Part shown: positions 1,877-52,204 of the stretch, in pieces | Position numbering within the stretch: position 1 is the stretch's first letter | Layout of the letters: each line of letters starts with the position of its first letter | From: Mycobacterium sp. | GTDB taxonomy: Bacteria > Actinomycetota > Actinomycetes > Mycobacteriales > Mycobacteriaceae | DNA: 64,000 nucleotides | NCBI RefSeq assembly: GCF_035623875.1 | Contig: NZ_DASPSP010000018.1 | Coordinates: 8,244-72,243, forward strand | Reading direction: 5' to 3' | Program-made: the position numbers and the translations under genes | Notes under the pieces: model-generated | Told to the model about the DNA's origin: nothing | What the model saw: the letters and a program-made list of their open reading frames with translations, nothing else | Databases searched by the model: none

Positions 1877-3349
1877 TCAGCTCTCGATGGTGTAGCCCAT
1901 CGGCATCAACACGCTCTTCTGTTGGGTGAAGTGCTCGACGCCCTCCGGCCCGTTCTCCCGGCCGATGCCGGAGTTCTTGTAGCCGCCAAACGGACAACAC
2001 GGATCGAAGGCGTACCAGTTGATCGCGTATGTCCCGGTGCGGATCTTCTCCGAGATCTCGATACCTCGTGGCACATTGGTGGTCCACACGCTGCCGGCCA
2101 GGCCGTACACCGAATCGTTGGCGATCTTGATCGCATCTTCCTCGGTGTCGTAGGGGATGATGCTGAGCACCGGCCCGAAGATCTCCTCCTGGGCGATTGT
2201 CATCTTGTTGTCGACATCAGCGAACACGGTGGGCTGCACGAAGAAGCCGTTGTCCAGCCCTTCGGGACGGCCGCCGCCGCACACCAGCCGCGCGCCCTCC
2301 TCGACGCCCTTGGCGATGTAGCCCTCGACGCGGGCGCGCTGTTTCTCCGAAATCAGCGACCCGATCTGGGCGGCCGGGTCTGACGGCGTCCCGACTGGCA
2401 GCGCCTGCACGAAAGCGCTTACCGCGTCCACGATTTCGTCGTAGCGCGAGCGGGGTGCCAGTATTCGGGTCTGGGCCACGCAGGCCTGTCCGGTGTTCAT
2501 GATTCCGGAGAACACCAGCATGGGGATCGAGCCGGCCAGGTCGACGTCGTCGAGGAGGATGGCCGCCGATTTGCCGCCGAGTTCCAGGGTGCACGGCTTG
2601 AGTATCTCCGCCGCGCGGCGGCCGATCTCCTTGCCGACGCCCGAGCTGCCGGTGAAGGAGAAGACGTCGATGTCTCGATTGGACGTCAGCGCCTGGCCGG
2701 TCTCGACCCCGCCGGGTACTACCGACAGCACACCCTCTGGCAGGCCGGCCTCAGCGAACACCTCCGCCAAAGCATTTGTGCTCAACGGGGTTTCGGCGGC
2801 TGGCTTGAGCACCACCGTGCAGCCGGCCAGTAGCGCCGGACCCAGCTTGTTGATCGCGAGGAATAGCGGCACGTTCCACGCCACGATCGCGCTGACCACG
2901 CCGAGCGGCTCGCGACGGACGATGGTCTGCCCGTAGCCGCCGTTGCGGATCTCCTGCCACTTGACCTGGTCGACGGCGGGGCCGGCGAAAAAGTTCATCG
3001 CCCCGATCCCGCTCATCCACTGCATCGTCTCGACAGAGGTCGGTGGCTGGCCGGTCTCGAGGCCGAGCAGCTTGGTGAAGCCATCCTTGCGCTCCTCCAT
3101 CAGCTTGAGCGCGTTGGCGAGGACGGCCGCGCGGTCTTTCGGCGGCGTCGTGGGCCAGGGGCCGCTGTCGAATGCCGCGCGGGCCGCAGCGACTGCCGCG
3201 TCGACGTCGGCCGCGGCCGCCAGCGGTACCTTGCCGACGTACTCGCCGGTGGCCGGGCAGTGCACCTCGATGACTTCGGAGGTCGACGGCTCCGTCCACT
3301 TGCCGCCAATGAAAAGCTTGTCGTACTCCGTTTTAGCGCTGTCGCTCAT
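1877..3349 (-). CDS. Aldehyde dehydrogenase (Rv0223c-like)
   Basis: FTGSSGVG, LELGGKS, catalytic GQAC, EEIFGP motifs; start placed at MSDSAKTEY (3349). Confidence 0.92.
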   Translation of the reverse strand: MSDSAKTEYDKLFIGGKWTEPSTSEVIEVHCPATGEYVGKVPLAAAADVDAAVAAARAAFDSGPWPTTPPKDRAAVLANALKLMEERKDGFTKLLGLETGQPPTSVETMQWMSGIGAMNFFAGPAVDQVKWQEIRNGGYGQTIVRREPLGVVSAIVAWNVPLFLAINKLGPALLAGCTVVLKPAAETPLSTNALAEVFAEAGLPEGVLSVVPGGVETGQALTSNRDIDVFSFTGSSGVGKEIGRRAAEILKPCTLELGGKSAAILLDDVDLAGSIPMLVFSGIMNTGQACVAQTRILAPRSRYDEIVDAVSAFVQALPVGTPSDPAAQIGSLISEKQRARVEGYIAKGVEEGARLVCGGGRPEGLDNGFFVQPTVFADVDNKMTIAQEEIFGPVLSIIPYDTEEDAIKIANDSVYGLAGSVWTTNVPRGIEISEKIRTGTYAINWYAFDPCCPFGGYKNSGIGRENGPEGVEHFTQQKSVLMPMGYTIES

Positions 3350-3391
3350 ATCGGCCACCCTACCCAAGCCGAAGCAAAACGAGAACATGTT

Positions 3392-4162
3392 TCAGTATTG
3401 TGGCTGAAGGACCAGCACGAGATTGCTCACCAGGAACTCCCGTAGCACCGGCACCGACGTCAGCCACCATGCCCATCGAGGGTGGTAGCGGGGGAAAGCG
3501 GCGACCAAGGCGCCAGTGCTGGCCGCCCAATTCAGGCCGTCGGCCGCCGATATCGCGAACAACGACGATCCGTAATCGTTTTTCGGACGATGACCGTGTT
3601 TGCGGGTGTAGCGCGCCGCGGCGCGCGCCCCGCCGAGATAGTGCGTCAGGCCCATCTCGTGGCCGCCGAACGGGCCGAGCCAGACCGTGTAGGACAGCAC
3701 CGCGAGACCGCCTGGCTTGGTGACCCGCAGCATCTCGGCGCCGAGCCGCCAGGGCCGCGCTACGTGCTCGGCGACATTGGACGACAGGCAGATGTCCACC
3801 GAGTCATCGGCGAACGGCACCGCCATGCCCGAGGCGCGGACGAATGTGCCAGTTGCGGCTGCCAAAGACGGCCCGGCCGTGTGCATTTCGTTTGGATCGG
3901 GTTCCACGCCGATGTACCGAAGCCCGGCGTCGGTAAAGGCCGTCGCGAAGTATCCCGGCCCGCCACCGACGTCGAGCAGCGTGCGACCAGCCGGAGACTC
4001 GCCGTGGGCGGACCGCCAGAAGTCGCACACCATAACAGCGGTGTCGACCGCCAGCGCGTGGTAGAACCGGGCCGGATCAGGCTGCTCGTAGCGGAACTCT
4101 GACAGCAGTCGCACCGACCGGCGCAGGGTCGCTCGCTGGGCAAACACGTCGGTCACGGCCAC
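3392..4162 (-). CDS. Class I SAM-dependent methyltransferase (Rv0224c-like; MtrP in corynebacteria)
   Basis: LDVGGGPG motif I, LSSNVAEHV; position in the Rv0224c-Rv0228 cluster. Confidence 0.9.
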   Translation of the reverse strand: MAVTDVFAQRATLRRSVRLLSEFRYEQPDPARFYHALAVDTAVMVCDFWRSAHGESPAGRTLLDVGGGPGYFATAFTDAGLRYIGVEPDPNEMHTAGPSLAAATGTFVRASGMAVPFADDSVDICLSSNVAEHVARPWRLGAEMLRVTKPGGLAVLSYTVWLGPFGGHEMGLTHYLGGARAAARYTRKHGHRPKNDYGSSLFAISAADGLNWAASTGALVAAFPRYHPRWAWWLTSVPVLREFLVSNLVLVLQPQY

Positions 4163-4273
4163 CGGCCAACCCTACGGCCGAGCTGACTTCACGTTTGCGC
4201 CCGCCGGGCTGATTGCCGGACTCCTCAGCCCGCCGCTTTCGCGGCGCGCATCGTCGCCCGGCTAGGCTGACCC

Positions 4274-5431
4274 GTGATGTCTCGTCTGCGCTCGGTATTG
4301 CTGCTGTGCTGGCGCGATATCGGCCACCCGCAGGGCGGTGGCAGCGAAACCTATCTGCAGCGCATCGGCGCCCAGCTGGCCGCGTCCGGCGTCGCGGTCA
4401 CGTTGCGCACCGCCCGTTACCCCGGCGCGGCACGTCGGGAAGTCATCGACGGTGTGCGGATCAACCGTGCGGGCGGGCGGTACTCGGTATACGTCTGGGC
4501 GCTGTTGGCGATGGCGGCGTCCAGGCTCGGGCTGGGGCCGCTGGGGCGGGTCCGACCCGATGTGGTAATCGACACCCAGAACGGCTTGCCGTTTCTGGCG
4601 CGGCTGATCTATGGCCGGCGGGTCGCGGTGCTGGTGCACCACTGCCATCGCGAGCAGTGGCCGGTGGCCGGCTGGTTTTTCGGTCGGCTCGGCTGGTTTG
4701 TGGAGTCGCGGTTGTCGCCGAGGGCGCACCGCCGCAACCAGTACGTGACGGTGTCGTTGCCGTCGGCCCGCGACTTGGTCGGCCTGGGTGTTGCCAGTGA
4801 GCGAATCGCGTTGGTGCGCAACGGTCTCGACGAGGCACCCGAGGCGTCTCTGCGTGGACCACGGGCGGGTAACCCGCGCGCGTTGGTGTTGTCTCGGTTA
4901 GTGCCGCACAAGCAGATCGAGGACGCGTTGGCTGCGGTGGCGCTGCTGCGGCCATCGATACCGGGGCTGCATCTCGACATCGTCGGCGGCGGGTGGTGGT
5001 GGCGGCGCTTGGTCGACCACGCCGCACGCTTGGGGATCAGCGACGCGGTGACGTTTCACGGCCATGTCGATGACGTCACCAAACACCATGTCATGCAACG
5101 GTCTTGGGTGCACGTGTTGCCGTCGCGCAAAGAAGGCTGGGGTCTGGCGGTCATCGAGGCGGCCCAACACGCGGTGCCCACAATCGGCTACCGATCCTCC
5201 GGCGGGTTGGCCGACTCGATCATCGACGGGGTGACCGGGGTGCTGGTCGACAGCTGCGCCGAGTTGGTGAATCGGCTGCAGCAATTGCTGACTGATCCGG
5301 TGCTGCGTGATCAACTCGGCGTCAAGGCGCAGGCGCGCAGCGCCGAATTCTCTTGGCGGCAAAGCGCTGACGCGATGCGTACGGTGTTGGAGTCGGTGAT
5401 GGCCGGCGACCGTGTCAGCGGAGTAGTCTAA
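4274..5431 (+). CDS. GT4-family glycosyltransferase (Rv0225-like)
   Basis: HPQGGGSE N-terminal motif and PSRKEGWGLAVIEA (E-x7-E) motif. Confidence 0.92.
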   Translation: MMSRLRSVLLLCWRDIGHPQGGGSETYLQRIGAQLAASGVAVTLRTARYPGAARREVIDGVRINRAGGRYSVYVWALLAMAASRLGLGPLGRVRPDVVIDTQNGLPFLARLIYGRRVAVLVHHCHREQWPVAGWFFGRLGWFVESRLSPRAHRRNQYVTVSLPSARDLVGLGVASERIALVRNGLDEAPEASLRGPRAGNPRALVLSRLVPHKQIEDALAAVALLRPSIPGLHLDIVGGGWWWRRLVDHAARLGISDAVTFHGHVDDVTKHHVMQRSWVHVLPSRKEGWGLAVIEAAQHAVPTIGYRSSGGLADSIIDGVTGVLVDSCAELVNRLQQLLTDPVLRDQLGVKAQARSAEFSWRQSADAMRTVLESVMAGDRVSGVV

Positions 5432-14609: not shown

Positions 14610-15293
14610 ATGCCGACGGTGACTTGGGCTCGCGTCGACCCGGCGCGCCGTGCGGCCATCGTCGACGCCGCAGAGGCGGAGTTCGGAGCGCACGGCTTCT
14701 CGAGGGGCAGCCTGAACGTGATCGCGCGGCGTGCCGGAGTCGCCAAGGGCAGCCTGTTCCAGTACTTCGCGGACAAGCGCGACCTGTATGCGTTCATCGC
14801 CGACATCGCCAGCCAGCGGGTGCGTGTCTACATGGAGGACCGCATCCGCGAGCTCGACCCCAGCCGGCCGTTCTTCGAGTTTCTGACCGACTGGCTCGAC
14901 GCGTGGGTGGCCTACTTCGCAGACCATCCGCATGAACGCGCGCTGCACGCCGCGGCGACTCTTGAAGTCGACACCGAAGCCCGCGTCAGCGTACAGAACG
15001 TCATTCACCGTCACTACCTGGAAGTGCTGCGGCCGCTCGTCCGCGACGCGCGCGCCCGCGGTGACCTGCGCGCGGATTCCGATACCGACGCGTTGCTGTC
15101 CCTGCTGCTGATGATCTTTCCGCACCTTGCGCTGGCTCCATACCTGCGCGGGCTGGATCCGATCCTCGGACTCGACGAGCCCACACCGGAGCAGCCGGCG
15201 CTGGCGGTGCGCCGGCTCGTCGCTGTACTGGCGGCGGCATTTGCCGCGCTGCCGCAAGCCCACCGGAATGAGATACAGGAGGTCACCAGATGA
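14610..15293 (+). CDS. TetR-family regulator (Rv0232-like)
   Basis: [26 protein letters not shown]; stop overlaps the R2lox start. Confidence 0.92.
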
Positions 15294-16228
15294 CACGGAC
15301 ACGTTCAGGCTCGCTCGTTGCGGGCGGACTCAATTGGAACAGCCTGCCGTTGAAGCTATTTGCCGGGGGCAATGCGAAGTTCTGGGATCCGGCCGACATC
15401 GATTTCTCTCGCGACCGGGCGGACTGGGAGAAGCTGTCGGATGTCGAACGCGACTTCGCCACCCGGCTGTGCGCAGAGTTCATTGCCGGCGAGGAAGCGG
15501 TCACCGAGGATATTCAGCCCTTCATGGCCGCGATGCGGGCCGAAGGGCGGCTCGGCGACGAAATGTATTTGACGCAGTTCGCGTTCGAGGAAGCCAAACA
15601 CGTCCAGGTGTTCCGCTTGTGGCTGGACGCTGTTGGGATCACCGACGACCTGCACAGCTACCTGGAACCTCTGACGGCATACCGGCAGATGTTCTACGAG
15701 GAGCTCCCGGATTGCCTCAACGCTTTATCGATCGATCCGTCGCCGGCTGCCCAGATCCGGGCGTCCGTGACATACAACCACATCGTCGAGGGCATGTTGG
15801 CGCTGACGGGTTACTACGCCTGGCACAAGATGTGCGTGGAGCATGGCATTCTTCCCGGCATGCAGGAGCTGATTCGGCGCATCGGTGACGACGAGCGACG
15901 CCACATGGCGTGGGGCACCTTCACCTGTCGTCGCCACGTCGCCGCCGAAGACGCCAACTGGACGGTGTTCGAAACGCGTATGAACGAGCTCCTCCCGTTG
16001 GCATTGGAAGCCACCGAGCAGGGCTTTGCCTTGTACGACCCGATGCCGTTCGGCATGCAACTGGACGAGTTCATGCAGTACAGCGCCGACAAAGGGATGC
16101 GGCGGTTCGGCACGATCAGCAGCGCCCGCGGGCGGCCGGTGGGTGAGATCGACCTCGACTACTCGCCGGTGCAGCTCGAAGACACGTTCGCCGACGAGGA
16201 CGAGAAAGCGCTGGCCGCTTCGGCCTAA
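15290..16228 (+). CDS. nrdB: R2-like ligand-binding oxidase (R2lox, Mn/Fe; Rv0233, annotated nrdB)
   Basis: Ferritin-like ligands GEEAV, EEAKH, VEG, DERRH; Val/Tyr of the R2lox crosslink present; no R1 subunit nearby. Confidence 0.9.
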
Positions 16229-16231
16229 CGG

Positions 16232-16292
16232 GCGAGCAGACACAAAAGCCCCAAATCCCCCGGGCGTGTCGGGCGCTTTTGCGTCTGCTCGC
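16232..16292. repeat. Mycobacterial REP-like palindrome / bidirectional terminator between convergent genes
   Basis: GCGAGCAGACACAAAAGC (16232-16249) pairs with GCTTTTGCGTCTGCTCGC (16275-16292), 17/18 matches. Confidence 0.75.
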
Positions 16293-16301
16293 GAGGGGAA
16301 C

Positions 16302-17675
16302 CTATCCGACCCAGACGGTCTTGGCGTTGCAGAACGCGCGGATGCCGAGGCCCGCGAGTTCACGGCCATAGCCGGATCGTTTGACGCCGCCGAACCCTAA
16401 TTCGGGGTACGACACCGTCATTCCGTTGATGAACACCTGCCCGGCCTCGATGTCATCGATGAACCGCTCCTGCTCGGCTTCGTCGTTGGTCCAGGCGTTG
16501 GATCCCAGACCGAACGTGGTCGCGTTGGCGATCTCGATGGCTTCGTCGATGCCCGAGGCGCGGTACATCGAGGCGACCGGTCCGAAGACCTCCTCGGTGT
16601 AAAGCGCCATGTCCCTGGTGATGTCGGTGACCACCGTCGGCGGGTAGAACCATCCTGGTTGGTCGGGCGTCTTGCCGCCGAGGCGGACCTTCGCACCCGC
16701 GGTGACGGCGTCGTCGACCTGCTTGGCGATCTCGTCGCGGCCCGACTCGGTGGCCAGCGGACCCACGTCGGTGTCCGGGTCAGTCGGGTCGCCGACCTTG
16801 AGCGCCTCCATCCGCTCGACGAACTTGTCGACGAACGCGTCGTAAATGTCGGTGTGCACGATGAACCGCTTGGCGGCGATACAGGATTGGCCGTTGTTCT
16901 GGACACGGGCGGTGACCGCGGTCTTGACGGCTTCGTCGAGGTCCACCGACGGCATCACGATGAACGGGTCGCTGCCGCCGAGCTCCATCACGGTGGGTTT
17001 GATCTCGTCACCGCAGATGGCGGCGACTGATTGGCCGGCCGGTTCGCTACCGGTGAGGGTGGCCGCCGCAACCCGGGGATCGCGCAGGATGGCCTCGACA
17101 GCGCTGGACGAAACGAGCAGCGTCTGGAAACAGCCTTCCGGAAATCCACCGCGGGTGATGACGTCGGAGAGATACATCGCCGACTGCGGGACATTGGAGG
17201 CGTGCTTGAGCAGACCGACGTTGCCCGCCATCAGCGCAGGTGCGGCGAACCGAACGGCCTGCCAGAGCGGAAAGTTCCACGGCATCACGGCCAGCACGAC
17301 CCCGAGCGGCTGCCACCGGGTGTAGGCCCTTTTCGCTCCGACCTTCGACGCTTCCGCCGGTTCGTCGGCCAACAGCTTCTCGGCGTTGTCGGCGTAGTAG
17401 CGAAAACCCTTGGCGCACTTCAGCGCTTCACCCTTGGCCGATTTCAGCGTCTTGCCCATCTCCAGGGTCATCATCGCTGCGGTTTCGTCGGCCTCCTTTT
17501 CCAGGAGGTCAGCCGTGGCATTCGCCCACTTGGCGCGCTGGGCGAAGCTGGTGTGGCGGTAGTCGACGAACCGCTCGTGGGCGCGGGCTATTACCGCCTC
17601 GACTTCGTCGTCGGTTGCCGGGGTGAAGGTCTGGACTGTCTCGCCGGTGGCCGGGTTGATCGTGGCGATGGGCAC
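16302..17675 (-). CDS. gabD1: NADP-dependent succinate-semialdehyde dehydrogenase (Rv0234c-like)
   Basis: MPIATINPATGE start, MPWNFPLWQ, TGSEPAG, ELGGSDPF, NNGQSCIAAKRF; synteny. Confidence 0.92.
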   Translation of the reverse strand: MPIATINPATGETVQTFTPATDDEVEAVIARAHERFVDYRHTSFAQRAKWANATADLLEKEADETAAMMTLEMGKTLKSAKGEALKCAKGFRYYADNAEKLLADEPAEASKVGAKRAYTRWQPLGVVLAVMPWNFPLWQAVRFAAPALMAGNVGLLKHASNVPQSAMYLSDVITRGGFPEGCFQTLLVSSSAVEAILRDPRVAAATLTGSEPAGQSVAAICGDEIKPTVMELGGSDPFIVMPSVDLDEAVKTAVTARVQNNGQSCIAAKRFIVHTDIYDAFVDKFVERMEALKVGDPTDPDTDVGPLATESGRDEIAKQVDDAVTAGAKVRLGGKTPDQPGWFYPPTVVTDITRDMALYTEEVFGPVASMYRASGIDEAIEIANATTFGLGSNAWTNDEAEQERFIDDIEAGQVFINGMTVSYPELGFGGVKRSGYGRELAGLGIRAFCNAKTVWVG

Positions 17676-17755
17676 GTTGACATCCTTCGGTTGCGATGGT
17701 TTGTGAAGCGTCCGGTATCCAGCCTGCCACTATCGTGGCCAAAGGGAGGTGCCGG

Positions 17756-19402
17756 ATGAGTAAAGCTGCTCAGCTGATGGTCAAGTGCCTGGAGAACGAG
17801 GGTGTTTCCGTGGTCTTCGGGCTACCCGGCGAGGAGAACATCCGCTTCGTGCAGGCGTTGGCCTTCTCGAACATCCGTTATGTGCTCACCCGCCATGAGC
17901 AAGCGGCTTCGTTTATGGCGGAGATGTATGGACGCGTCACCGGCCGCGCGGCGGTGGTATCGGCCACCTTGGGCCCCGGCGCGATCAACATGCAGCTCGG
18001 CGTCGCCGACGCCACCACCAACAGCACACCGATGGTTGCCATCTCCGCGCAGGTGGGTCAGGATCGCCAGTTCAAAGAGTCGCACCAGTACGTCGACCTT
18101 GTTTCGATGTTCGCCCCGATCACCCGTTGGGCCGCCGGGGTCCCGACCGCGCACGCCATACCGGAGATGTTCCGCAAAGCGTTCAAGCTCGCTGAGGCCG
18201 AACGCCCCGCCGCGGTCTACCTCGCCGTCCCGGAACACATAGATGCAGATGCCGCCGATTACGACTTGACGCCGTTGCCGCGCAACGTCGTCCGCGCCGA
18301 AGCGCCGGCCGCCCGCCAAGTGGCACGCGCGGTCGACATTCTGCGCGAGGCCAAGCGGCCGGTGGTGCTGGCCGGGCACGGCGCGGCCCGTGCCGACGCG
18401 ACCGCGGCCCTAGTGCGGTTCTCCGAGGAATTCGGCCTCCCGGTGGCTAACACCTTCCACGGTAAGGGCGTCATGCCCGACGACCACCCGAACAGCATCG
18501 GGACCATCGGGTTCATGCGCCACGACTACGTCAACTTCGGGTTCGACAACGCCGACGTCGTCGTCGCCGTTGGCTACGAGTTGCAGGAATTCGATCCGGT
18601 CCGAATCAACCCCAAGGCCGACAAGAAGATCATCCACATCCATCGCTTTCCGGCCGAGGTCGACATGCACTATTCCGTCGACGTCGGGATCATCGGCGAT
18701 ATCAGTGCCTCACTCGACGCGGTCACCGAGGCGCTCGCCGGGCATACCTTCGACGCCGATCCAGAGATACCCGGCTCCGGTCTGCTCGACGAGGAAATTG
18801 CTCGGGGGCAACAGGATTCGCGATACCCGCTGGCTCCTGCCCGGGTAGTCGCCGACACCCGCGCCGCACTGGACCGCCGCGACATCGTCCTGGTCGACAC
18901 GGGTGCCACCAAGATGTGGATGGCCCGGCTCTACCCTACCTACGAACACAACACCTGCTTGATATCAAATGGCTTGTCCACCATGAGTTTTGCGCTGCCC
19001 GGAGCCCTTGGTGTCAAGTTGGCGATGCCAAAGTCGAAGGTGCTGGCCGTGGTCGGGGACGGCGCGTTCTTGATGAACTCCCAGGAGATCGAAACCGCCG
19101 TCCGGGAGCGGATACCACTCGTTGTATTGATTTGGGAGGATGGCGGTTACGGACTCATCGAGTGGAAAATGGACCTCGAACTGGGTGACCACTACTATGT
19201 TAAGTTCGGCAACCCCGACATCGTTGCCTATGCAGAGAGCTTCGGCGCCAAGGGTTATCGAATAAACAGCGCCGAGGAACTGTTGCCCACGTTGAAGGCT
19301 GCGCTCCACGATGATGGCGTTTCGCTGATCTGCTGTCCCGTCGATTACTCCGAAAATCTGCGGTTGACCGACCGGCTCGGTGAGCTCGACGAGACGCTTT
19401 AG
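17756..19402 (+). CDS. ThDP-dependent enzyme, acetolactate-synthase-like; candidate 2-oxoglutarate decarboxylase
   Basis: FGLPGEEN, RHEQ, TLGPGA, ESHQYVDLV, GDGAFLMN...EDGGYGLIEW; GGGAGG RBS before ATG 17756. Family certain, substrate inferred. Confidence 0.85.
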   Translation: MSKAAQLMVKCLENEGVSVVFGLPGEENIRFVQALAFSNIRYVLTRHEQAASFMAEMYGRVTGRAAVVSATLGPGAINMQLGVADATTNSTPMVAISAQVGQDRQFKESHQYVDLVSMFAPITRWAAGVPTAHAIPEMFRKAFKLAEAERPAAVYLAVPEHIDADAADYDLTPLPRNVVRAEAPAARQVARAVDILREAKRPVVLAGHGAARADATAALVRFSEEFGLPVANTFHGKGVMPDDHPNSIGTIGFMRHDYVNFGFDNADVVVAVGYELQEFDPVRINPKADKKIIHIHRFPAEVDMHYSVDVGIIGDISASLDAVTEALAGHTFDADPEIPGSGLLDEEIARGQQDSRYPLAPARVVADTRAALDRRDIVLVDTGATKMWMARLYPTYEHNTCLISNGLSTMSFALPGALGVKLAMPKSKVLAVVGDGAFLMNSQEIETAVRERIPLVVLIWEDGGYGLIEWKMDLELGDHYYVKFGNPDIVAYAESFGAKGYRINSAEELLPTLKAALHDDGVSLICCPVDYSENLRLTDRLGELDETL

Positions 19403-19412
19403 TCGGCCGACA

Positions 19413-20852
19413 TTAATCGGTCGCCGCTTTCGCCAGTGAAGTGGGCCGCAGGTAGTTGCCTTCCAGCGTGCGATGCCACCACGCGTGATCATGTCGCAAT
19501 TCGGCCGCAGTGGTGAAGCGGTATCGGTAGAGCTGAGCGCGTACGTATCGTGGCGGGGACCCCGGGAAGGGATTGTGGCGGAGCAAGCGCAGCGTCGCCA
19601 CATCATTCTGCAAGAGCCGCAACACAAATGGTCGAAGCCAGGGGTAGGCGTAGTGCGGCGAGATGGCGGCAAACCACATCAGCCAGTCCAGTCGCAGGTG
19701 ATACGGCGCCCATTGCGCCGGCACGCGGCGCACCGCCCCGGGCTTGCCTTTGAACTCGTATTCCTTCCACACCGTCTGATTGGTGACCTCCGGCTCGTCG
19801 GTGCCTTCGATCACTACCTCCCGGCGGGTTCGGCCTATGGTGCCGAACGCGCCATACGTGTTGATCAGGTGGTACGCGTTGAACGACATGTTCATCCGCT
19901 GCCGCCGGGAGATCATGTTGCGCACCGGATACCAGGTCAGCATCACGGTCAGCACCGTGAACCCGATCACCAGGCCGGCGAACCACGGTGGAGCTGCGAC
20001 CAGCGCCGGCTGTTTGGGAATGGGCAGCACTGCCGCCGCCGATGACGCGTCGATCACGCTGCAGCCCAGGAGAATCGTCAACCAGTTCAACCAGGCGAAG
20101 TTACCCGAGATCACCAGCCACAGCTGGGTGATGACGACGATCGCTCCGGCGATGCTGGCCACCGGCTGCGGGGCGAACAATCCAAACGGGACAATCAGCT
20201 GCGCGAAATGGTTCCCAACGACTTCTACCCGATGCAGGGGCTTGGGTAGGTGATGGAAGAACCAGCTCAGCGGCCCTGGCATCGGTTGAGTTTCGTGGTG
20301 GTAGTAAAGGCAGGTCAGATCGCGCCAGCACGAGTCACCGCGGAGCTTGATCAGTCCCGCACCGAACTCGAGCCGGAATAGCAGCAAGCGCGCCAGCCAC
20401 ATGGCCAGCAGCGGCGGCGCGACCCGGTCATTGCCGAGGAAGATCGCCAGGAAACCGGTCTCGAGCAGTAGCGACTCCCAGCCGAACGAGTACCACGTCT
20501 GGCCGACATTGACGATCGACAGGTAAAGCAACCAAAGCAGCAGCCACACCAATACCGCAGCCCACAGCGGCAATGCGCCGGCCAAGCCCAACGCCATAGC
20601 TGCCGATAGCAGCGCACCCAACCAGGCGACAGCCGCAAAGAACCGATCGGAATAGTGGACGTGGAAGATGCTCGGCGTTTGGCGGAAGGATTGTCGGGCC
20701 AGATAGCGCGGCACCGGCAGCAGCCCGTGTTCCCCGATCAGCGCCCGAAACTGTCGCGCGGCCGCAACGAACGCGAAGACATAAACGACCGCGATGCCAC
20801 GCTCCAGTATCAGCCGGCCCAACCAATACTCGGGTGCGCTAAACCATCCCAT
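19413..20852 (-). CDS. Lipase maturation factor family membrane protein (Rv0235c-like)
   Basis: FGWESLLLETGFL, HHETQPMP, YEFKGKPG, RLDWLMWFA motifs. Confidence 0.92.
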   Translation of the reverse strand: MGWFSAPEYWLGRLILERGIAVVYVFAFVAAARQFRALIGEHGLLPVPRYLARQSFRQTPSIFHVHYSDRFFAAVAWLGALLSAAMALGLAGALPLWAAVLVWLLLWLLYLSIVNVGQTWYSFGWESLLLETGFLAIFLGNDRVAPPLLAMWLARLLLFRLEFGAGLIKLRGDSCWRDLTCLYYHHETQPMPGPLSWFFHHLPKPLHRVEVVGNHFAQLIVPFGLFAPQPVASIAGAIVVITQLWLVISGNFAWLNWLTILLGCSVIDASSAAAVLPIPKQPALVAAPPWFAGLVIGFTVLTVMLTWYPVRNMISRRQRMNMSFNAYHLINTYGAFGTIGRTRREVVIEGTDEPEVTNQTVWKEYEFKGKPGAVRRVPAQWAPYHLRLDWLMWFAAISPHYAYPWLRPFVLRLLQNDVATLRLLRHNPFPGSPPRYVRAQLYRYRFTTAAELRHDHAWWHRTLEGNYLRPTSLAKAATD

Positions 20853-20928
20853 GTCCGTAACTCCTCGGACGGTGGACGTCGGTACTCATCCTCCCGCGTG
20901 CACAGCCGGCCCGGGTGAAAACCGCGCT

Positions 20929-21561
20929 TCAGGAGTCGGCTTTGAGGATCACCGGAACTTCGATGTCGTTTCGGACAAGCTCACCTGGAAAGCACGGGGA
21001 CACGCCGGTAATCGTCGGTGGATATCCGTTGTGGTTAGCCGCGACGATTTGGAGACTGTACCCATCCGGCGCATAACCGAATCGGTTCGGTTTCCGGAAC
21101 CCGTCGCGTTCACGCACGTACCAGCCCCAGCCCTGCCAGATATCACCGGCCTTGGCGATCATCGCGTCCAGATCGGTTTCGGGAGGAAAGACCGCGTCAC
21201 GGATGTCGGAGAATTCGTTCGGCGGGACACCGGTCGGCTCGTCATTGCACGGTGTATTTCCCGAGCCCGCGTAGCGGGAGCGATCGAAGACCGTTCCCGT
21301 CGGTAAGGCTTGGAGGGTCTTCTTCAGATACCCGATCACGGTGTCTTGGGCTTGTTGCTGGCTGGTTGGGACGACGGGTTGCACCTTCCAACCCGGCGGC
21401 GGTGGCGGGCCAGATGCCATGGGAAGTTCTCCAATGGTCGTTGCTCCCGACGGTGTCGGAGGTCCCGGCGGGTTGCGTTGGCCGCAAGCGACGAGCGCGA
21501 TGACCAGGATGGTGCCGGTCAAAACAGTTCGCGCTAGGGCTTGGGAGGTGGTGGCATTCAT
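20929..21561 (-). CDS. Lipoprotein (LppA/LppJ-like), putative immunity protein
   Basis: GAGG RBS, ATG at 21561, signal peptide ending in lipobox LVAC (Cys26), Pro-rich linker, two further Cys including C-terminal SPC. Confidence 0.8.
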   Translation of the reverse strand: MNATTSQALARTVLTGTILVIALVACGQRNPPGPPTPSGATTIGELPMASGPPPPPGWKVQPVVPTSQQQAQDTVIGYLKKTLQALPTGTVFDRSRYAGSGNTPCNDEPTGVPPNEFSDIRDAVFPPETDLDAMIAKAGDIWQGWGWYVRERDGFRKPNRFGYAPDGYSLQIVAANHNGYPPTITGVSPCFPGELVRNDIEVPVILKADS

Positions 21562-21572
21562 CTGGTCCTCGC

Positions 21573-23216
21573 TCAGCTCGGCCCGACGATCTGCGGAGGC
21601 GCAACCCCGGCGATGACGGCGCCCATGTTGGCCAGCGCGATGTTGTGTTGATCCCAGTAGCTGCTGTGGGCGTCGACGCTCGGCAGTCCCACCGGGCCGG
21701 TGGGTATCGGGCCGGCCGCCAAGCCACGGGCGCCGAACTTCGGTGCTGTCGGATCGGGTCCCAGTGTCCATTCGGCGACCACGCCGCTGATGCCGATGAT
21801 GTCGTCAGCCGCCCGCATCGCATACACATCGGCGCCCGGCTCCAGGCTGAGCCCGTCGACGCGGTCCACCAACATTCCGGGGCTGCCAACCGCGATGACG
21901 TTGTCAGCATCGAGGTGATGCCCACCTGAAGCGGCCGCGCCGACCAGTGTCGAGCCGTAGCTGTGGCCGATTACGGTGTCGATCGACGGTGGCCCGACAT
22001 GTGAGGCGCGCAGCCCGCTCTCGAATGCGTCCAACCCGTCGGCGCCCGCGCGAGCGGGATCAGGGAAGGCCGCGCGGCTCAAGTTCATTGGACGGTCATA
22101 ACCCATCCACGTCGTAATCGACACATCCTTGGGGCCAAGAGTCTTGTCTGCGGCACGCGCCGTGTTGTACATCGCCACTGCTCTTGCGTCGCTGAACGAC
22201 AGACGGGCCAGGTCCTGACCGGTGCCGGGAACGAAAATGCCATTGCGTTTGGCGAAGTCCGGGTTCCCGATAGCCACGGCGCCATGGCCCGTGTCATCGA
22301 GGTAGCCCAAGTAGCGATCCACCCCATCCGCGCGGTTCAAGTCGGCTCGTACCGCCTGATAGCCCGCCAATTTGCGTCGGGCCGCCGCCAGCTGTGATTG
22401 CAACGCATACAGCGCGCCGTCGTCGACGTTGTGGCCGGCCGCCATCTCGTCAATGCTGTGCTGCATCCGGTCGACGGCGGCTTCGGTCTGCCCCTCGAGC
22501 TCGTGTAGGTGCAGCCGGTTGTAGTGGTCCTTCCCCAGGTGATCCGTTGGGTCCCACGGCATTCCGGCGTGGTTGCCGACGTTGTGGTTTTGACCGTATA
22601 GCCAGTCCTTTTCCTCCGGGGTGAGCTGATTCCACAACTCGTTGAACTTCTTCGGGTCATCGGGCAGCGGCTCGGACAGCGCGTCCTGGATGTGTGGCCG
22701 ATTGTCATGCGGTTCCGTCGGAATGGGCACGTCTCCGTCGGCCATATCGATCGCTGTCGCCAGCTCCGCGTCGACGGCGTTGGCCTCGGCCAGAATCGCG
22801 TCTAGCCATGGCTGCAGCTGCATTTCGGCGATGAGGGCTGCTGACGGCGGACCGTTGAACGTCGCACTCGGCACCACCTTGTCGGTCAGCGGATCGATCG
22901 TCATGTGCAGCTCGGCGGCATCGTGCCGCAGCGAGCGCAATTCGGACTGCACGTGCTCGATGCCGTCGGCGGCTTTGCCGGCCGCGCGGGCGACCGCCAG
23001 TGACTCGTTACCGTGCGCGTCGAGGTCTTCGCGGATCGCGGCATTGGTGTGCCATCTGGCCTCGGCAGTTGCGCCCTCCCAGGTGTCGAACACCGCCAAC
23101 GAGCTCAGCTGACGCGACGCTTCCAAGGTGGCCTGCCCGCGCGCCCCGGCCGCGTGGAACACCTCGCGCACCGCCTCGGCGCTCCATCGATCAATATCGA
23201 CCACCGGCAGCGTCAC
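21573..23216 (-). CDS. WXG100-like N-terminus fused to an alpha/beta hydrolase (DUF1023/Abhydrolase_8)
   Basis: Helical N-terminus with WEG at residues 46-48; VPGTG, GHSYG nucleophile elbow, DDII, AHSSYW triad motifs; no signal peptide. Confidence 0.85.
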   Translation of the reverse strand: MTLPVVDIDRWSAEAVREVFHAAGARGQATLEASRQLSSLAVFDTWEGATAEARWHTNAAIREDLDAHGNESLAVARAAGKAADGIEHVQSELRSLRHDAAELHMTIDPLTDKVVPSATFNGPPSAALIAEMQLQPWLDAILAEANAVDAELATAIDMADGDVPIPTEPHDNRPHIQDALSEPLPDDPKKFNELWNQLTPEEKDWLYGQNHNVGNHAGMPWDPTDHLGKDHYNRLHLHELEGQTEAAVDRMQHSIDEMAAGHNVDDGALYALQSQLAAARRKLAGYQAVRADLNRADGVDRYLGYLDDTGHGAVAIGNPDFAKRNGIFVPGTGQDLARLSFSDARAVAMYNTARAADKTLGPKDVSITTWMGYDRPMNLSRAAFPDPARAGADGLDAFESGLRASHVGPPSIDTVIGHSYGSTLVGAAASGGHHLDADNVIAVGSPGMLVDRVDGLSLEPGADVYAMRAADDIIGISGVVAEWTLGPDPTAPKFGARGLAAGPIPTGPVGLPSVDAHSSYWDQHNIALANMGAVIAGVAPPQIVGPS

Positions 23217-48445: not shown

Positions 48446-51400
48446 TCAGGGGCGCCCGTATCCGCCGCCGCCGGGAGTGTGGATCTCCAGGATGTCGCCG
48501 GCGTTCAGCTCGACCGAGTCGCAGCCAGCGAGTTCGACGACGCTGCCGTCCACGCGGCGGACCAGGTTGCGACCGAGCGCACCTGGCGCTCCCCCGGCCA
48601 TCCCGTACGGGGGGACGCGTCGGTGCTGCGACAGCATGCTGACCGTCATGAGTTCCCGAAATCGGAGCCGCCGCACCGCGCCGTCCCCGCCGCGCCACCG
48701 CCCGTCCCCGCCGCTGCCGCGGCGGATCGCGAAGCTGTCGACCAACACCGGGAACCGCCACTCCAACACCTCGGGGTCGGTCAACCGGGAGTTGGTCATG
48801 TGGGTCTGGACCACCGAAGCCCCGTTATAACCCGGCCCCGCACCGGATCCGGAGGCGACGGTCTCGTAGTACTGGTGCCTGGCATTGCCGAACGTCACGT
48901 TGTTCATCGTCCCCGAGCCCTCGGCCTGTACCCCGAGCGCCGCGTAGAGGGCACCGGTGATGGACTGCGAGGTCTCCACGTTGCCGGCGACGACTGCGGC
49001 CGGATAAACCGGTGCGAGCATGCAGCCCGGCGGGATAACCACCTGCAGCGGCTTGAGGCAACCGTCGTTGAGCGGGATGTCGTCGTCGACCAGGGTCCGG
49101 AACGCGTACAGCACCGCGGCCATCACCACCGAAGTCGGTGCGTTGAAGTTGGTGTTCAGCTGTGGGGAGGTCCCGGTGAAATCGATTGTGGCCGTCCGAT
49201 TTTCCGCGTCGACTGAGACTCGGACCTTGATGACCGCCCCGCCGTCCATCTCATAGGTGTACTCGCCGTCGCCCAAAGCGGCGATCACGCGCCGCACCGC
49301 CTCCTCGGCGTTGTCCTGGACGTGACGCATGTAGGCCTGCACCACCTCCAGGCCGAAGTCGTCGATCATTTTGCGGACTTCCTCCACGCCTTTTTCGGTA
49401 GCGGCGATCTGGGCGCGTAGGTCCGCCAGGTTGGTCTCCGGGTTGCGTGAGGGGTACGACGCCCTGGTGAGCAGGTCGCGTGTCTCGGTCTCCCGGAGGG
49501 CGCCATGCTCCACCAGCAGCCAATTGTCGAACAGCACACCCTCCTCGTGCACGTCGCGGCTGCCCGCCGGCATCGAGCCGGGACTCACTCCGCCGATCTC
49601 AGCATGGTGGCCCCGGGCGGCGACGAAGAACAACAGCCGCTCGCCGTCTCCGAAAACCGGTGTGACGACGGTGACATCGGGCAGGTGGGTGCCGCCGTGG
49701 TAAGGGTCGTTGATCGCATACGCATCACCGATTTTCATCGCCCCGGCGTTACGGGCGATGATCTCCTTGACGGCCGCTCCCATCGAACCCAGGTGGACCG
49801 GGATATGCGGTGCGTTGGCGACGAGGTTGCCCTCGGGGTCGAACAACGCGCAGGAGAAGTCGAGCCGCTCTTTGATGTTCACCGACTGGGCCGTGGACTC
49901 CAGCCGCACCCCCATCTGCTCGGCGATCGACATGAACAGGTTGTTGAAGATCTCAAGCAGTACCGGGTCGGCGTCGGTGCTCACCTCGCCGGCGCCGGTG
50001 TGGGCGCGCACCCGCGTCAGCACAAGATGCCCGAGCTCTACTAACTCGGCGCGCCAGCCATCCTCGACCACCGTGGTCGCGTTGGTCTCGGCAATGATGG
50101 CCGGGCCGGTGACCGTCTCGCCGAGGACGAGCCGGTCCCGCCGGAACAGCGACACCTCGCGCCAGCCCCCCTGGTTGTACATGGGAACGGTGTCCACGGG
50201 CCCCGCAGGCGGGCCGTCCGGATGGGACGCCTCCGCCAAGGCGCGCAGGTCAGGCTGCTCGGTGAGTCCAACGGCCTCCACGGAGACGGCTTCGACTACC
50301 AGGGGACGGTCCATTAGGAACGAGTAGTTGCGTTTGTAGCTTGCCTCGAACTCGGCGGCCATCGTCTCCGGGTCGGCCAGGCCCACCTGGACCGCGATGT
50401 CGGTGCCGTCGTAGCGGAGGTGTGCCCGGCGGGTCACGCGGAGCCGCTCGTCGGGCACGTCCTCGTCTTGCAGGCGCGCGCGCGTGGCTGATTCCAGTGC
50501 ATCGGCGACCTCGCCCACCCGCTCCATCGCTTCCGGCTCAAGCTGGCACTCCACCGACTGTTCGCGCATGGCGGTCGCGTCCGCGAGCCCGATGCCCAAC
50601 GCGGACAGCACACCCGCCATGGGCGGAATCAAGACGGTGCCGATGCCCAAAGAATCGGCCACCGCGCAGGCGTGCTGGCCGCCGGCGCCCCCGAACGTGG
50701 TCAGCACGTACTCGGTGACGTCGCGCCCTTTTTGCACCGTGATTCGCTTGACCGCGTTGGCCATGTTGGCCACCGCGATCCGCAGGTAGCCCTCGGCGAC
50801 CTGCTCGGGGGTGCGGTCGTCGCCGGTCTGTGCGGCGATCTCGCGTGCCAGCTCACCGAACCGCCGCCCGACGATCTCGGCGTCCAGCGGCTGGTCGCCG
50901 TCGGGGCCGAAGACGGCGGGGAAATGGTTCGGCTGGACGCGGCCGAGCATAACGTTGGCGTCGGTGACAGTCAGCGGGCCGCCGCCTCGGTAGCAGGCCG
51001 GACCGGGATCGGCGCCCGCCGAGTCCGGGCCCACTCGGTACCGGGTGCCGTCGAAGTGCAGGACCGACCCGCCGCCGGCGGCAATGGTCTGGATGTCCAG
51101 CATCGGCGCGCGCAGCCGGACTCCCGCGACCAGGGTGTTGAAGACGCGCTCGTATTCCCCGGCGTAGTGCGACACATCCGTGGACGTGCCGCCCATATCA
51201 AAACCAATGACCTTGTCGAATCCAGCCAGCTCCGACATGCGAACCATCCCGACGATGCCGCCGGCCGGGCCGGACAGGATCGCGTCTTTGCCGCGGAAGT
51301 GTCCGGCCTCGGCCAGGCCCCCGTTGGACTGCATGAACATCAGTCGCACGCCCGGCAGCTCGGCGGCCACCTGCTGGATGTAGCGATGCAAGATCGGTGA

Positions 51401-52045
51401 CAGATATGCGTCGACGACGGTGGTGTCACCGCGCGAGACGAGCTTCATCAGCGGACTGACTTCCGCCGACAGCGAGATCTGCGGGAAGCCGATTTGTTTG
51501 GCGGCCTCGCCGATCGCCTGCTCATGGGCCGGGTACAGGTGGCTGTGCAGAGACGCAATGGCCACTGCGTGGATTCCGTCGCCGTAGGCCGCCCGCAGGT
51601 CGGTCGCCAGCCGGTCTAGATCCGGAGCCCGCAGCACCGTGCCGTCGGCCGTGACCCGTTCGTCGACCTCGATGACCCGTTCGTGGAGCAGTTCCGGCAG
51701 GACAATGTTGCGGGTGAAGATGCGCGGCCGGTTCTGGTAGCCGATCCGCAGCGCGTCCCCGAAACCCCGGGTGATGACGAGCGCCGTGCGCGCGCCCTTG
51801 CGCTCCAGCAGCGCATTGGTCGCTACCGTGGTGCCCATCCGCACCGCCTCGATCCGCTCGGCCGGAATCGGATCATCCGCCGCGAGTCCAAGCAGTGCGC
51901 GGATCCCCGCCACCGCGGCGTCGGCGTAGCGCGAGGGGTTGTCCGAAAGCAGCTTGTGCGTCACCAGACGCCCGTTCGGCTGACGGGCGACGATATCGGT
52001 GAACGTTCCACCGCGGTCGATCCAAAACTGCCACTTCCCGGCCAC
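48446..52045 (-). CDS. oplA: Single-chain 5-oxoprolinase / hydantoinase A+B fusion (Rv0266c)
   Basis: [63 protein letters not shown]; GAGGAG RBS before GTG 52045. Confidence 0.93.
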
Positions 52046-52204
52046 CCGATGCTCCTCATCGTTTAGTAGGGACGAGTTGCCGGTCACGGTGACTGCTGTT
52101 ACTGCCGGGGTGTACCAGCATGGGACGCGTGGCCTGTCGGTTGTCCCGATGCTCGGTGTCTTAGGAGACCACGGGCGCCTGGCGGCAGATCGCGTGAGCC
52201 GGAC

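Follow-up and report, generated by a model that had tools for sequence, protein, structure and literature searches.

In a 64,000-nucleotide stretch of a Mycobacterium sp. genome (assembly GCF_035623875.1, contig NZ_DASPSP010000018.1, positions 8,244 to 72,243; hereafter the window), a gabD1-type gene for an NADP-dependent succinic semialdehyde dehydrogenase (SSADH) lies head-to-head with a gene for a thiamine diphosphate (ThDP)-dependent enzyme that both public records and NCBIfam label "acetolactate synthase large subunit." We propose, with a probability of about 0.6, that this enzyme is instead a 2-oxoglutarate decarboxylase of the type known in cyanobacteria as OgdA or KGD, which would feed succinic semialdehyde to GabD1.

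The divergent gene pair and its spacer

The gabD1 gene occupies positions 16302-17675 of the minus strand, starts with GTG and encodes 457 aa that match NF006915 and the Pfam domain Aldedh. The ThDP gene occupies 17756-19402 of the plus strand and encodes a protein of 548 aa in the PRK08322/NF006187 family, here predicted to be an OgdA/KGD-like 2-oxoglutarate decarboxylase. The open reading frame (ORF) of the ThDP gene spans 17696-19402 (+), and initiation at the in-frame ATG at 17696 is less probable. The true start is most likely the ATG at 17756, since the Shine-Dalgarno sequence AAGGGAGG (17742-17749) is found 6 nt upstream of it and the 548-aa homologues align from residue 1. With this start, exactly 80 bp (17676-17755) separate the two divergent start codons, the spacing given in a prediction made earlier from the DNA alone (hereafter the original prediction).

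This intergenic region contains the ribosome-binding sites of both genes, that of gabD1 being AAGGA (complement of 17683-17687), as well as a conserved block, AGCCTGCCACTATCGT, at 17721-17736. Across 74 aligned orthologous spacers the block hardly changes, whereas the sequence around it varies. It includes a -10-like hexamer of the TANNNT type, TATCGT (17731-17736), and may be a promoter or operator for the divergent pair; the two genes could be co-regulated from the 80-bp spacer. A sigma-70 consensus scan of 16100-19600 found no promoter, and an Rfam scan of 15000-21000 found no riboswitch or other RNA, its sole match being a CRISPR-DR at chance level (E 0.89). Rfam scanning of 12 cyanobacterial loci returned one tmRNA and one tRNA only.

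Family membership and active site of the ThDP enzyme

The ThDP protein consists of the domains TPP_enzyme_N, M, and C (PF02776, PF00205, and PF02775), which cover residues 3-525, and its length of 548 aa compares with 545-550 aa for the cyanobacterial members of the family. The motifs quoted in the original prediction (KCLENEGVSVVFGLPGEEN, ESHQYVDLVSMFAP, NTCLISNG, DGGYGLIEWK, and CPVDYSEN) are all present. NF006187/PRK08322 is the only NCBIfam model that the protein passes (779 bits, cut-off 509). It falls short of both models of the catabolic acetolactate synthase AlsS (NF006378, 456 bits against a cut-off of 510; TIGR02418, 432 against 551), as well as of the model for the biosynthetic acetohydroxyacid synthase (AHAS) IlvB (TIGR00118, 365 against 538). 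It shares 34-35% of its residues with AlsS and 29-32% with E. coli IlvB and IlvI. In tblastn searches of the 64-kb window, E. coli IlvN, IlvH, IlvC, and IlvA had no match, which agrees with the earlier remark that ilvN and ilvC are not nearby, and the ThDP gene was the only match to E. coli IlvB and IlvI.

Reference proteins were located by scanning metagenome contigs with four peptides of the cyanobacterial enzyme MaKGD, taken from mutagenesis primers together with published residue numbers (PMC10418658). When concatenated and used as the query of a word-indexed protein search, the same peptides gave 11 candidates, none of them useful. Approximately 30 loci encode proteins of 545-550 aa that match 48-53 of the 57 MaKGD peptide residues, and in those of 550 aa, 16 of 17 published MaKGD marker residues fall exactly at their published positions. 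Exact-sequence look-up and the names of 90%-identity clusters tied the reference proteins to Aphanizomenon flos-aquae, Stenomitos, Microcoleus, Argonema, Drouetiella, and Vacuolonema. All of these cyanobacterial proteins are labelled "acetolactate synthase large subunit," the mis-annotation named in the original prediction. They score 872-876 bits on NF006187, and therefore this "equivalog" is the KGD family. The window protein shares 44-48% of its residues with them and is collinear over 545 columns without large gaps; together with its own NF006187 score, this places it in the NCBIfam family of the cyanobacterial 2-oxoglutarate decarboxylases and makes it a well-founded candidate for the predicted function. 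One representative, P0264, was considered cyanobacterial by its motifs; its relatives proved to be Lachnospiraceae, Clostridium, and Pectinatus, and it served as another clade.

Four cyanobacterial members of the family have been characterised in vitro as 2-oxoglutarate decarboxylases. In a published study, 2-oxoglutarate was the sole tested 2-oxoacid from which MaKGD and ScKGD produced an aldehyde; neither enzyme produced one from pyruvate or 2-oxopentanoate, and none of three further 2-oxoacids gave an aldehyde with MaKGD (PMC10418658). In addition, over-expression of sll1981 lowered isobutanol flux rather than raising it (PMC6158846). The "equivalog" NF006187/PRK08322 is named acetolactate synthase even though its only assayed members are these cyanobacterial decarboxylases, a discrepancy seen at loci L082, L096, L097, L104, and L110 of our collection.

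We placed the protein in a neighbour-joining tree (100 bootstraps) with the B. subtilis and K. pneumoniae AlsS sequences taken from Protein Data Bank alignments and E. coli IlvB and IlvI as outgroup. The AlsS clade received 100% support and excludes the window protein; the cyanobacterial and actinobacterial clades likewise received 100% each. Within the 100%-supported clade of the window protein are Streptomyces plasmid genes (70% identical), P0121 (57%), and P0124 (50%), and by pairwise identity alone plasmid genes of Roseomonas (61%) and Pectobacterium (59%) are also close. M. tuberculosis IlvB2, IlvG, and IlvX were considered as orthologues; they probably belong to other ThDP families.

The active site was compared with that of MaKGD, for which mutagenesis has shown E50, M410, D435, D462, Y465, and L467 to be important (PMC10418658). 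The window protein has all six residues, with E48 in the place of E50, and G434-D435-G, K386, and K471 are also kept. The same study proposes, from a docked AlphaFold model, that 2-oxoglutarate contacts Q254, V382, K386, A408, L467, and K471, with a hydrogen bond from K386 and a salt bridge from K471 (PMC10418658); these contacts derive from the docked model and were not mutated in MaKGD. K386, L467, and K471 are conserved in the window protein. K471 aligns with Q487 of B. subtilis AlsS, K386 with an Ala or His of AlsS, and S408 with the Gln of the AlsS QTM/QTL motif. Furthermore, E26 falls in the same alignment column as Asp27, the catalytic residue of Z. mobilis pyruvate decarboxylase (PDC; 1ZPD), the PDC N-terminal sequence in the alignment being identical to that of 1ZPD. 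This column holds Glu in every PRK08322 member of the alignment, Ala in AlsS, and Gly in IlvB and IlvI. In PDC, an acid at the Asp27 site aids enamine protonation and aldehyde release. By analogy, E26 would fit a decarboxylase rather than a carboligase.

Partner genes and conservation of the pair

GabD1 scores 897 bits on NF006915, "NADP-dependent succinic semialdehyde dehydrogenase" (cut-off 730), over profile positions 1-457 of 457. Its best solved relative is 3VZ1/4IT9 (567 bits), followed by E. coli Sad (384 bits). The structure 3VZ3 is a Cys262Ala variant of the 3VZ1/4IT9 protein, and one paper identifies it as A2771 of Synechococcus sp. PCC 7002, that is, SsaD, the operon partner of OgdA (A2770) in this organism. 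According to a paper on the cyanobacterial SSADH, the determinants of NADP use are K154 and S157; in our alignment GabD1 keeps the LKHAS segment with the NADP-determining Lys and Ser, along with the catalytic Cys and Glu. With GabD1 nearest to A2771 and the ThDP protein in the OgdA/KGD family, the nearest characterised relatives of both genes are therefore the cyanobacterial bypass genes.

The association of the two enzyme families recurs outside Mycobacterium. In 24 cyanobacterial loci, those whose upstream flank is long enough, the KGD gene is directly preceded by an SSADH gene on the same strand. These SSADHs are 51-59% identical to the window GabD1 and share its best NCBIfam model, which, with A2771 as best solved relative, bears out the earlier statement that the cyanobacterial enzyme works with an SSADH of the GabD1 subfamily. 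On a Haloarcula plasmid, the gene for an SSADH 51% identical to GabD1 overlaps the ThDP gene by 4 bp, and annotations point to a like arrangement in Halorarius and a second Haloarcula. At the metagenomic locus L123, a 48%-identical SSADH is encoded directly downstream of a ThDP family gene. On a plasmid of Haladaptatus caseinilyticus (L140, 2443-5078), the family member is divergent from an sdhB-like gene for a succinate dehydrogenase/fumarate reductase iron-sulfur subunit, another link of the family to the tricarboxylic acid (TCA) cycle.

In a species-level scan with one genome per species we obtained at least 585 relatives of the ThDP protein, of which the best 80 were used as the orthologue set. 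These are all from Mycobacterium, among them M. colombiense, M. interjectum, M. gordonae, M. szulgai, M. angelicum, M. paraense, and M. montefiorense, with identities of 87-95%, and each of the 80 aligns with 546 or more of the 548 residues. The order TetR-R2lox-gabD1 followed by the ThDP gene is found in nearly all 80 loci. The junction between gabD1 and the ThDP gene measures at most 110 bp in 72 of the 78 species-representative Mycobacterium genomes whose flanks are long enough, and the spacer of the head-to-head pair is 71-99 bp. In comparison, the junction of the ThDP gene with the LMF1 gene downstream is this short in only 15 of 71 genomes, because insertions are common there. The ThDP gene is under strong purifying selection, with ratios of nonsynonymous to synonymous substitution rates (dN/dS) of 0.06-0.10 for 12 of 13 orthologues; the outlier (L079, 0.29) is probably due to a register shift. 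Linkage to gabD, which the original prediction suggested surveying across actinobacteria, is found in Mycobacterium; the close relatives on Streptomyces and Proteobacterial plasmids are not linked to an SSADH gene.

In a few Mycobacterium genomes the pair is split by an insertion. The inserted element is an IS605 OrfB-like transposase gene in L009 (4507-5904), an ORF of approximately 420 aa with weak lectin-like similarity in L013 (4675-5970), with similar inserts in L048 (4745-6001) and L001 (4693-5970), and a gene for an F420H2-dependent quinone reductase in L041 (5433-5954). In L001, a metagenome-assembled genome, gabD1 matches occur in several frames (3118-4600), reflecting either a pseudogene or an assembly error; the ThDP gene there (95% identity) is intact.

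The G+C content of the window is approximately 65%. Its nearest named relatives by protein identity are M. heidelbergense and Ca. M. methanotrophicum (92%), and its sequence is present in public DNA reads from peat metagenomes. The neighbours of the pair are genes for a phosphotriesterase, two TetR regulators, an R2-like ligand-binding oxidase (R2lox), an LMF1-family membrane protein, an Abhydrolase_8 protein, and AftD. We take this order to be that around Rv0230c-Rv0236c of M. tuberculosis, with R2lox resembling Rv0233 and the ThDP gene being extra. Between the LMF1-family and Abhydrolase_8 genes, and overlapping the ORF of the latter, there is an ORF of 280 aa (20929-21771, minus strand) that has no Pfam match and is detectable in 3 of 80 related loci. 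An ORF of 1,213 aa (48446-52087, minus strand), whose size suggested Kgd, turned out to be a 5-oxoprolinase with Hydantoinase A/B domains, presumably similar to Rv0266c.

More distant relatives occur in other settings. A gene for an AEC-family (Mem_trans) transporter directly followed by one for a PRK08322-type enzyme 57-61% identical to the window protein forms a recurrent two-gene module, found in L137 (3989-6638, Roseomonas mucosa plasmid), L138 (3885-6641, Pectobacterium carotovorum plasmid), L130, and L132. It resides on mobilisable or conjugative plasmids, flanked by transposases, as well as on unassigned contigs, and could be a transport-coupled decarboxylation unit. On a plasmid of Streptomyces goshikiensis (L125, 3959-7313), a 70%-identical homologue is followed by a gene annotated as "FMN-binding glutamate synthase family protein," a neighbour that may connect the homologue to 2-oxoglutarate/glutamate metabolism. 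In Streptomyces sp. NBC_00080 the neighbours of the homologue are genes for cyanase, carbonic anhydrase, and CynR.

Proposed function and comparison with known systems

From the family of the ThDP enzyme, the identity of its partner and the conservation of the pair, we infer a route around part of the TCA cycle. The ThDP enzyme would act as a ThDP- and Mg2+-dependent non-oxidative decarboxylase converting 2-oxoglutarate to succinic semialdehyde and CO2, and the divergently transcribed GabD1 would oxidise the released aldehyde to succinate, yielding NADPH. The pair would in this way circumvent the steps of 2-oxoglutarate dehydrogenase and succinyl-CoA synthetase and need neither coenzyme A (CoA) nor lipoamide. 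The bypass put forward in the original prediction is supported as a candidate by these lines of evidence; substrate, release of free aldehyde, and any physiological role are inferred from them.

Several observations weigh against this assignment. The characterised members of the family are all cyanobacterial and share only approximately 46% of residues with the window protein; ThDP enzymes this far apart can have different substrates. Of the contacts proposed by docking, Q254, V382, and A408 are replaced by M, T, and S, and the ThDP contact H385 is replaced by T. Although the two lysines, K386 and K471, set the aligned family sequences apart from AlsS, they are no proof of 2-oxoglutarate specificity: they are kept in most of the family, including a Vibrio member located next to an unrelated aldehyde dehydrogenase, and a Leisingera member has His at 471. 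The tree bears out the original prediction in part, in that the window protein is outside the AlsS clade, whereas the clade joining the actinobacterial group with the cyanobacterial and Clostridial one has a bootstrap of only 25% and monophyly of the family 45%. Genomic context is also mixed. The two window genes are divergent and do not form an operon, and their conservation as a pair within Mycobacterium is partly inherited synteny. The closest relatives from outside the genus (57-71% identical) do not adjoin an SSADH gene; their neighbours encode an AEC-family transporter, a glutamate-synthase-like protein, or cyanase. The C. beijerinckii member has no adjacent aldehyde dehydrogenase gene, as is the case in other Clostridia, and the aldehyde dehydrogenases that accompany the Vibrio and Leisingera members share only 26-30% of their residues with GabD1. 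Members located beside an unrelated aldehyde dehydrogenase, or none, indicate that the family probably covers more than one substrate. Finally, the ThDP gene was found in none of the public RNA sequencing runs. Independent support for the pairing comes from its recurrences in other phyla.

The alternative that survives best, although we consider it unlikely, is that the enzyme is a non-oxidative decarboxylase of the same family acting on another anionic 2-oxoacid, such as 2-oxoadipate or oxaloacetate, with GabD1 either oxidising the corresponding aldehyde or being a mere syntenic neighbour. The actinobacterial clade indeed has a pocket signature of its own (M254, T382, T/L/I385, STM at 408-410, and WKMD after 470), and both the non-SSADH neighbours of the closest non-Mycobacterium relatives and the aldehyde dehydrogenases paired with the Vibrio and Leisingera members, which have little similarity to GabD1, make several substrates plausible. 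However, the partner in the window is a full-length, high-scoring SSADH nearest to the partner of OgdA, A2771, and pairing of an SSADH with a family member is seen in four separate lineages. Both active-site lysines are kept, and the gabD1 junction is far better preserved than the downstream junction.

It is less probable still that the protein is a catabolic AlsS-like acetolactate synthase or another carboligase, joining two pyruvates, or a ThDP-bound intermediate and an acceptor, in a reaction unrelated to GabD1. The database name and the Clostridial members lacking an adjacent aldehyde dehydrogenase would be in line with such an activity, and the solved structures nearest to the protein are AlsS enzymes (E 1e-107 to 1e-93). 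Nevertheless, the protein scores below both AlsS cut-offs and is placed outside the 100%-supported AlsS clade, and the AlsS signature is replaced, with K in place of B. subtilis Q487, S at the Q424 position, and E/E in place of A39/K40. The acidic residue at the PDC Asp27 position, which in PDC favours protonation and aldehyde release, points in the same direction. So do the assayed members of the family, all of them 2-oxoglutarate decarboxylases reported to form no aldehyde from pyruvate (PMC10418658), and the lowered isobutanol flux upon sll1981 over-expression (PMC6158846). An extra AHAS catalytic subunit for branched-chain amino acids is very improbable, since beyond general homology to IlvB and IlvI (29-32% identity) the protein resembles KGD-type and AlsS proteins far more closely, is well below the TIGR00118 cut-off, has no ilvN, ilvH, ilvC, or ilvA homologue within 64 kb, and carries PGEE and STM where AHAS has PGG and GTM.

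If the enzyme is a 2-oxoglutarate decarboxylase, the pair offers a concrete hypothesis for the source of succinic semialdehyde for mycobacterial GabD1 and GabD2, which has been disputed since Kgd was proposed for this role and then reinterpreted. A broader and decidedly speculative extension is that most non-tuberculous mycobacteria run a CoA-independent, NADPH-making OgdA-GabD1 bypass of the TCA cycle through an enzyme unrelated to Kgd, and that gabD1 of M. tuberculosis is the orphaned half of a pair whose decarboxylase was lost. A "variant TCA cycle" was reportedly proposed for mycobacteria in 2005; if the extension is true, that proposal would be right for environmental mycobacteria, by way of a different enzyme, and the bypass would matter when 2-oxoglutarate dehydrogenase is shut down. 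Should the gene prove absent from M. tuberculosis, as the original prediction held for this position in H37Rv, it would mark a metabolic difference between environmental and host-restricted mycobacteria. The misnaming of NF006187, in turn, passes to metabolic reconstructions of mycobacteria, cyanobacteria, haloarchaea, and Clostridia. In the literature we found no description of an OgdA-type enzyme in mycobacteria or Actinobacteria, and nothing on Rv0234c together with Rv0235c.

Among known systems, PDC of Z. mobilis is a distant homologue that shares the acidic residue at Asp27 (E26) and the cofactor-activating Glu; the His113/His114 pair of PDC is absent from the window protein. AlsS/BudB (B. 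subtilis, 4RJJ; K. pneumoniae, 1OZF) has the same fold and cofactor motifs at 34-35% identity, but has PGAK, QTM/QTL, and Y-D/N-M-V-x-F/I-Q where the window protein has PGEE, STM, and YGLIEWK. Among the domain-checked genes adjacent to the pair (approximately 10-27.5 kb of the window), there is no acetolactate decarboxylase or butanediol-pathway gene.

Mycobacterial Kgd/SucA (Rv1248c) was once proposed to be a 2-oxoglutarate decarboxylase feeding GabD1 and GabD2 and was later shown to form 2-hydroxy-3-oxoadipate. The proposed substrate and the downstream enzyme GabD1 are thus the same as for the window enzyme, whereas the ThDP family is unrelated. Kgd is an E1o-type protein of approximately 1,200 aa; the window protein has only the TPP_enzyme domains of the pyruvate oxidase (POX)/AHAS type within its 548 aa, without the E1o architecture.

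The closest counterpart is the cyanobacterial system of OgdA/KGD (SynPCC7002_A2770, sll1981, MAE_06010, and cce_4227) and SsaD (A2771 and cce_4228), with which the window pair shares NF006187, protein length, the three-domain layout, and the SSADH subfamily. The two systems differ in that the window genes are divergent with an 80-bp spacer whereas the cyanobacterial genes are co-directional, that Q254, V382, H385, and A408 are M, T, T, and S in the window protein, and that the latter belongs to a separate, 100%-supported actinobacterial clade. The mycobacterial host presumably has a 2-oxoglutarate dehydrogenase system too, so that the proposed route would be an addition and not the only way to close the cycle. 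Judged from these sequence comparisons, the ThDP enzyme is probably a mycobacterial representative of a known enzyme type, hidden behind a misleading family name.

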